A stretch of 64,000 nucleotides of DNA from Escherichia coli (GTDB lineage Bacteria; Pseudomonadota; Gammaproteobacteria; Enterobacterales; Enterobacteriaceae), in the NCBI RefSeq assembly GCF_017348835.2, contig NZ_CP071375.1, one strand, 5' to 3'. A program made the translations under genes and the position numbers. Position 1 is the stretch's first letter. Each line of letters opens with the position of its first letter. The notes below the pieces were generated by a model, which was not told where the DNA came from, searched no databases, and worked only from the letters and a program-made list of their open reading frames with translations. Positions 38,720 to 38,751 of the stretch are shown one piece after another.

Positions 38720-38751
38720 GAATAGAGATTCAGGCATCTACCTGCTATTAC
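38720..38751 (-). other. Perfect 14-bp inverted repeat (stem-loop) within the operon, between the 105-aa gene and the transporter gene
   Basis: gtagatgcctgaat-agag-attcaggcatctac; on the mRNA strand followed by a U-rich tract (UUCUCCUGAUUCUGAUUUAU). Confidence 0.5.

Follow-up and report, generated by a model that had tools for sequence, protein, structure and literature searches.

An RNA stem-loop encoded at positions 38710-38741 on the minus strand of the window, the 64-kb stretch of Escherichia coli DNA analysed here as a whole, lies inside a methylaspartate operon between the genes for a DUF4387 protein and a symporter. On sequence comparison, this hairpin is the E. coli and E. albertii version of P2, a helix of an intergenic RNA that is conserved in eight other genera. 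We consider it very probable that selection on the mRNA strand maintains the hairpin as an RNA structure, and that this selection acts on the structure and not on the sequence. As to function, we regard it as about an even prospect that the stem-loop, as the orthologue of P2, serves as a boundary for mRNA stability or processing between cistrons of the methylaspartate operon.

Pfam and RefSeq annotation identify the cluster as the methylaspartate (glutamate fermentation) genes, arranged as glmS-glmL-glmE-mal-atuA-DUF4387, the hairpin, and then symporter-fumD-cobO. The operon is transcribed from the minus strand, and the hairpin is therefore carried on its polycistronic mRNA. Upstream of the hairpin the genes overlap or are spaced by no more than 18 nt. 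The last member of this tightly packed block is the 105-aa DUF4387 gene (38825-39142, minus strand; stop codon 38825-38827), and the first long gap of the operon follows it. The original prediction had described a gap of 160 bp at this place, and we confirmed it as the intercistronic region between the DUF4387 stop codon and the symporter ATG (38665-38824, minus strand). The first gene past the hairpin encodes a GltP-like dicarboxylate/amino acid:cation symporter of 426 aa (37384-38664, minus strand; ATG 38662-38664) and is followed by fumD, which encodes a class I fumarase (FumD mesaconase), and by cobO. The hairpin is separated from the symporter start codon by 45 nt. The Shine-Dalgarno sequence GGAGG of the symporter gene (38670-38674, minus strand), which is part of an invariant GATGGAG box, is located outside the hairpin and 35 nt downstream of its base. 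A terminator-like hairpin past cobO (34982-35008, minus strand) has 11 pairs, 9 of them G-C, followed by GUUUU; it is the end of the operon and is canonical, unlike the hairpin at 38710-38741. The symporter-fumD gap (37277-37383) displayed no significant structure (z +1.25), and a promoter scan of 38665-38824 returned no sigma-70-like promoter on the sense strand.

A LysR-family gene stands convergent at the end of the cluster, and the whole is flanked by sucD and cydA. The cluster is carried by 1123 of 5426 complete E. coli genomes, and the methylaspartate/mesaconase genes constitute an accessory island in many opportunistic enterobacteria and in pathogenic E. coli such as O157:H7 and O55:H7. 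Kronen and Berg described the cluster in O157:H7 without transcript information and offered only the speculation that its transcription depends on unknown stimuli (PMC4682846). Our literature searches found no transcript mapping, RNA 3' ends or decay data for the cluster and, among the papers covered, no mention of DUF4387. The DUF4387 gene and the adjoining gene for an AtuA-like (DUF1446) protein (39139-40509) are kept as a pair in methylaspartate clusters from Enterobacteriaceae to loci of Clostridia, Spirochaetes and Chloroflexi. Upstream of glmS, positions 45119-45700 (minus strand) comprise about 550 nt of very A+T-rich non-coding DNA, of a kind typical of promoter regions that are horizontally acquired and possibly silenced; the intergenic RNA motif has no copy in this stretch.

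The inverted repeat of the window consists of the 14-nt arms GTAGATGCCTGAAT and ATTCAGGCATCTAC with the 4-nt spacer agag between them. On the mRNA the 5' arm corresponds to 38741-38728, the loop CUCU to 38727-38724 and the 3' arm to 38723-38710. The 14-bp arms and the 4-nt loop of the original prediction are real, while its coordinates (38720-38751) were 10 nt too high. Two additional pairs, one A-U and one G.U, extend the perfect 14-bp stem to 16 bp (38708-38743); the extension exists on the mRNA strand only and is impossible on the plus strand. A folding-energy calculation, suggested in the original prediction, gave -23.7 kcal/mol for the 16-bp stem against -6.9 +/- 2.3 kcal/mol for 200 shuffled sequences (z -7.3), none of which reached the observed value. 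A scan of the whole window identified the 14-bp repeat as its longest perfect hairpin, with runners-up of 12 bp, and the maximum found in 30 shuffled windows was 11 bp. Given this length record, the limit set by the shuffles and the folding z-score, the hairpin is not a product of chance. The next-longest hairpins of the window, at 56808-56841 (ACACGACCAGAA...TTCTGGTCGTGT) and 11003-11036 (TATTTATGCAAT...ATTGCATAAATA), both have perfect 12-bp stems and 10-nt loops. The arms of the 38710-38741 hairpin are 43% G+C. The stem is followed on its 3' side by the tail UUCUCCUGAUUCUGAUUUAU (38690-38709, minus strand), which is single-stranded and moderately U-rich, and which could be a putative endonuclease entry site. 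The U-rich tract of the original prediction is weak: the tail has 11 U in 20 nt (55%) and opens with UUCU, no U run adjoins the stem, and the hairpin was rejected in a terminator scan.

Variation within E. coli was surveyed with a query of 72 nt around the hairpin. This 72-mer was confined to the DUF4387-symporter locus in the 1123 E. coli genomes and was single-copy there; the second place reported for it in each genome presumably reflects a self-match of the palindrome to the opposite strand. The perfect form of the hairpin was present in 609 genomes, and every polymorphism in the sampled 72-nt variants fell inside the hairpin. An A to G change in the 5' arm, found in 96 genomes, produces a G.U pair on the mRNA. 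The corresponding A to G change in the 3' arm produces a U.G pair; it occurred alone in five of the eight variant sequences fetched and together with two loop changes in a sixth. Both changes would create C.A mismatches on the opposite strand. E. albertii carries a fully compensated replacement of A-U by G-C that converts GUAG...CUAC to GUGG...CCAC (-24.3 kcal/mol). Escherichia sp. MOD1-EC7003 represents an intermediate, having a P2 of 7 bp, a retained CCCUAC and an E. coli-like ribosome-binding region; additional look-ups for further intermediate Escherichia lineages gave only types already known. Two loci deserve separate description. E. coli strain 100416 (locus L001, 6165-7056) carries an IS1B insertion exactly within the hairpin, so that the match to the window ends at 38734 and 27 of the 36 hairpin nucleotides are left; the remaining intergenic region and the entire DUF4387 gene are deleted. 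A 7.3-kb contig labelled 'MAG: Collinsella sp.' (locus L005) is 99-100% identical to the E. coli locus, hairpin included; it almost certainly comes from E. coli and was mis-binned into an actinobacterial MAG.

For comparison across genera, 80 loci around DUF4387 homologues were fetched. The order DUF4387 to symporter and a gap of about 165 nt are maintained across the Enterobacterales sampled. A hairpin of 13-17 bp that shares the alignment position of the E. coli one, with 39-52 nt between it and the ATG, was found in 30 genomes from eight non-Escherichia genera (Citrobacter, Klebsiella, Enterobacter, Lelliottia, Pluralibacter, Buttiauxella, Raoultella and Salmonella, the last represented by arizonae/diarizonae). 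The arm sequences of this helix, P2, differ between genera and the pairing is kept. Analysis of the 30 genomes with RNAalifold and explicit pair counting demonstrated changes on both sides in 11 of 13 P2 pairs, in counts that ignore kinship among the genomes. Of all P2 alignment cells, 95% were paired, compared with 27-44% when the partner columns were slid by 1-3 positions, and the P2 pairing score was reached by none of 500 shuffles. When E. coli is compared with C. braakii, 7 of 15 P2 pairs differ on both sides and all are still paired. Over all helices, G.U combinations occupied 134 cells and A.C combinations 15, a ratio of about 9:1; this excess indicates a constraint on the sense-strand RNA and not on DNA symmetry.

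The membership of the hairpin in a larger conserved intergenic RNA of related genera escaped the original prediction. P2 is one helix of this RNA in the 30 relatives, together with an upstream helix (P1), a possible third helix (P3) and conserved junctions. P1 showed covariation in 6 of 9 pairs. The possible P3 (GGUUGG/CCARCC) is formed around P2 and stops some 12 nt short of the Shine-Dalgarno sequence; its changes are one-sided only. Among the 30 relatives the unpaired junctions UUCAUGCGGUUGGUCACAACAGG and ACCCUACAC hardly vary, and the Citrobacter-type element includes GGUUGGUCACAACAGG as well as ACCCUACAC. Pairwise identity amounted to 0.88-1.00 in the junctions, 0.67-0.77 in the stems and 0.53 in one 11-nt linker, where the neutral yardstick, taken from the 4-fold degenerate sites of both flanking genes, was 0.53-0.54. 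Judged from these sequence comparisons, the whole intergenic region of the 30 relatives is under purifying selection and bears the signature of a functional structured RNA. An additional helix proposed by RNAalifold at the ribosome-binding site ('P4') was discarded, as it has a 1-nt loop in real sequences. An upstream open reading frame starting from the conserved CATGCGG was likewise rejected; loop-length indels shift its frame, and the stem follows pairing and not codons.

A covariance model (R1) was built from the 30 non-Escherichia intergenic regions. R1 matched the E. coli intergenic region at 38662-38809 (minus strand) with 26.3 bits and an E-value of about 0.001-0.007, and gave no other match in the window or in other loci and zero matches in 839 kb of unrelated metagenomic DNA. 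In the R1 alignment the E. coli sequence has a fully paired P2 and 4-5 of the 9 P1 pairs, while P3 is broken and the conserved boxes are lost. Since P2 is perfect in E. coli despite the loss of P3, of most of P1 and of the boxes, P2 is valuable by itself. Searches against Rfam returned no family at E <= 1 in the E. coli operon and none in five related loci. A metagenome scan with the invariant 14-mer CATGCGGTTGGTCA gave chance matches only, on soil and marine contigs, none of which fitted R1. Insertions of about 115-195 bp were observed in two of the related intergenic regions. The insertion of Klebsiella oxytoca (locus L021, 5319-5511) comes after the stop codon and does not disturb the RNA motif (158 bits); that of Citrobacter amalonaticus S646 (locus L012, about 5420-5570) follows the CCCUAC box, and the motif there is degraded (82 bits). 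Both insertions resemble ERIC elements.

A strong hairpin is present shortly past the DUF4387 stop codon even in lineages whose intergenic region is not homologous to that of E. coli. Yersinia has a 10-bp hairpin followed by UUUUUU, which is terminator-like and was accepted in the terminator scan. Hairpins past DUF4387 measure 9 bp in Pseudescherichia, 12 bp in Yokenella and 12 bp in E. fergusonii. E. marmotae, E. whittamii and Escherichia sp. E1V33 (loci L088-L090, L218, L007 and L008) have no symporter gene and still possess a 13-bp hairpin past DUF4387; this hairpin (AUAAAUGUACCUG...CAGGUACAUUUAU) differs from the E. coli one. The constant feature is a hairpin after the upstream block, whatever comes next, and a 3' protective role for that block fits this pattern. 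DUF4387 is followed by fumD in the symporter-less lineages, with about 270-285 nt between the two genes; in E. marmotae a LysR gene comes directly after fumD, and cobO is seemingly absent too. Yersinia, Hafnia, Budvicia and relatives (loci L043, L044, L051, L053, L057, L041, L048 and L055) conserve a box, CCACCCUAC or GACCUAC, and then UUAUAAAUGGAAUCAUUAUG just upstream of the symporter ATG. This box resembles the ACCCUACAC box that follows P2 in Citrobacter-type genomes; the remaining intergenic region is not alignable.

Several other functions were weighed for the hairpin. It may be the P2 helix of an undescribed cis-regulatory RNA, through which a factor (an sRNA with Hfq, a protein or a metabolite) would set the translation or stability of the transporter-fumD-cobO half, the E. 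coli copy being a reduced one; we consider this reading unlikely, although it is attractive for the Citrobacter-type element and several features favour it. The junctions are conserved far beyond the neutral level and the stems evolve by compensation, P1 covaries, the possible P3 surrounds P2 near the Shine-Dalgarno sequence, no Rfam family matches, and C/A-rich unpaired tracts precede an amino-acid transporter gene. On the other hand, E. coli keeps P2 alone in perfect form, the changes in P3 are one-sided, its distribution is limited to one operon in one family, and no alternative fold that would sequester the Shine-Dalgarno sequence turned up. The sRNA GcvB was considered as a partner of the C/A-rich tracts. 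Its sequence was verified by Rfam; duplexfold on the whole molecule gave meaningless global duplexes, and a local test of GcvB R1 was used. The best local duplexes had energies of -14 to -25 kcal/mol and z-scores of -1.5 to +1.8 relative to dinucleotide shuffles. The reading of the region as a GcvB target was rejected, as the predicted R1 pairing was no better than these shuffles and did not rise above the expectation from composition. For the Enterobacteriaceae more generally, it is doubtful that the intercistronic RNA of about 150 nt (P1, possible P3, P2 and junctions) serves as a sensor, whether riboswitch-like, protein-binding or sRNA-binding, by which the glutamate transporter/mesaconase/adenosyltransferase half of the methylaspartate operon is controlled; the E. 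coli and E. albertii copies would then be degenerate and retain only the function of P2. A partial Rho-independent terminator, or intra-operon attenuator, that lowers downstream transcription seems improbable to us. The hairpin is strong, its tail starts with UUCU and is more than half U, and the non-homologous Yersinia hairpin with its U-tract suggests that lower downstream transcription could be a common theme. Terminator and promoter scans were run on the intergenic region of E. coli, C. braakii and Y. alsatica; neither E. coli nor C. braakii yielded a terminator-like hairpin, and no sense-strand promoter was detected in any of the three. Support for the terminator or attenuator offered by the original prediction is weak: the tail UUCUCCUG falls below the threshold of at least 5 U in 8 nt, and the 14-bp hairpin went unreported. 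Moreover, two of the proximal U's are consumed by the 16-bp stem, and the G+C content of this stem is low next to the 9 of 11 G-C pairs in the operon's real terminator. The orthologous P2 of Citrobacter, Klebsiella and Salmonella is followed by ACCCUACAC with no U-tract, and none of these was accepted by the scan. Leaky termination, conceivable in E. coli, therefore cannot be the conserved function.

The duplex itself might be an RNase III processing site at which the polycistronic mRNA is cut into two independently decaying parts. Its 16 continuous bp in E. coli and 16-17 bp in Citrobacter and Klebsiella, maintained as a perfect or near-perfect duplex, are in keeping with this idea. Efficient RNase III substrates typically have roughly two helical turns, with about 20 bp or more of near-continuous duplex. 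The stem stays below this length, and in Escherichia sp. MOD1-EC7003 it is only 7 bp, and we assign RNase III cleavage a low probability. The reading that we disfavour most strongly, and consider highly improbable, is that of an element acting at the DNA level, either a palindromic operator bound by the nearby LysR-type regulator or by some other dimeric protein, or a palindrome of REP-like or mobile nature. Perfect dyad symmetry, the LysR-family gene at the end of the cluster and the IS1 and ERIC-like insertions in the DUF4387-symporter intergenic region speak for such an element. REP elements start with GTAG and end with CTAC, as do the arms of the hairpin. The protein-binding operator of the original prediction nevertheless finds no support: the arms differ between genera that retain the regulator, DNA symmetry leaves the strand-specific excess of G.U over A.C unexplained, and the window holds no more matches to the half-site than chance would give (6 against 4.4 expected), the only exact ones being the two arms. 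No promoter-like site is found nearby. The sequence is also single-copy, both across the 1123 E. coli genomes and over roughly 0.7 Mb of related loci. REP/BIME identity was rejected on the same grounds, the 72-mer occupying a single locus and the P2 sequences matching, among the loci fetched, the orthologous intergenic region only.

The stability boundary is the reading that we prefer, and among the options raised in the original prediction an RNA processing or stability element gives the best fit, with compensatory and G.U changes on the mRNA strand and a hairpin past DUF4387 in every lineage. Dar and Sorek (2018), who mapped such structures genome-wide, reported that protective structures marking the limits between operon segments of unequal decay occur commonly and are conserved in E. 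coli, Salmonella and Enterobacter (PMC5927463). The hairpin at 38710-38741 likewise is a stable structure at an internal operon boundary and is conserved in related species. It resembles protective intercistronic 3' stem-loops such as the malE-malF REP hairpin and those mapped by Dar and Sorek (PMC5927463) in being a stable stem-loop at a gene-block border inside an operon, and resembles this class further in that the structure is kept across enterobacteria, the sequence drifts and a U-tract is unneeded. Unlike the malE-malF hairpin it is single-copy and not a REP, and unlike most structures of that study (PMC5927463), which lie inside the downstream coding region, it occupies a true intergenic gap. 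Intra-operon attenuators of the rplL-rpoB type share with it a strong hairpin in a long intercistronic gap that could cut downstream transcription; the U-tract of such terminators, however, is missing in E. coli and completely so in the orthologues. At iscR-iscS a strong intercistronic hairpin shields the upstream cistron or cistrons, while the downstream part is targeted for decay. The intergenic structure of the RyhB-controlled iscRSUA operon is cited as a case of differential decay (PMC5927463), and the methylaspartate hairpin would in the same manner shield upstream cistrons. In contrast to iscR-iscS with RyhB, no sRNA partner was identified for it, and the predicted GcvB pairing was no better than shuffles.

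By analogy with these systems, a decay-barrier mechanism is one to which we give slightly less than even credence. Endonucleases would cut within the single-stranded tail or further on, within the downstream cistrons, after which the hairpin would block 3'-to-5' exonucleases, and the mRNA of the upstream enzymes would outlive the transporter/fumD/cobO part. A small, read-through-limited termination at the hairpin may occur besides. The outcome would be two halves of one operon expressed at different levels. The papB-papA stem-loop is a 5' protective one (PMC5927463). The methylaspartate hairpin is similar in that a fixed distance of 43-52 nt separates it from the start codon that follows in E. 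coli and in Citrobacter-type genomes; processing could leave it at the 5' end of a downstream mRNA, and the conserved distance is also compatible with protection of the downstream cistron from its 5' side or with a part in its translation. Unlike at papB-papA, lineages lacking the symporter or having other spacing still place a hairpin right past DUF4387, and a 3' role for the upstream block fits better. The stronger conservation of junctions than of stems in the relatives, finally, points to a regulatory role there that is more specific than a simple exonuclease block.

The hairpin belongs to a well-known class, and the specific element has so far been unannotated. For annotation, the lesson is that a palindrome that looks like a terminator may be better read as an intercistronic RNA structure. 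The larger RNA of Citrobacter, Klebsiella and Salmonella arizonae may be a regulatory element and is unannotated. In the methylaspartate operon, a selected RNA structure that splits the enzymes from the transporter, mesaconase and B12-adenosyltransferase would provide a handle on gene balance.
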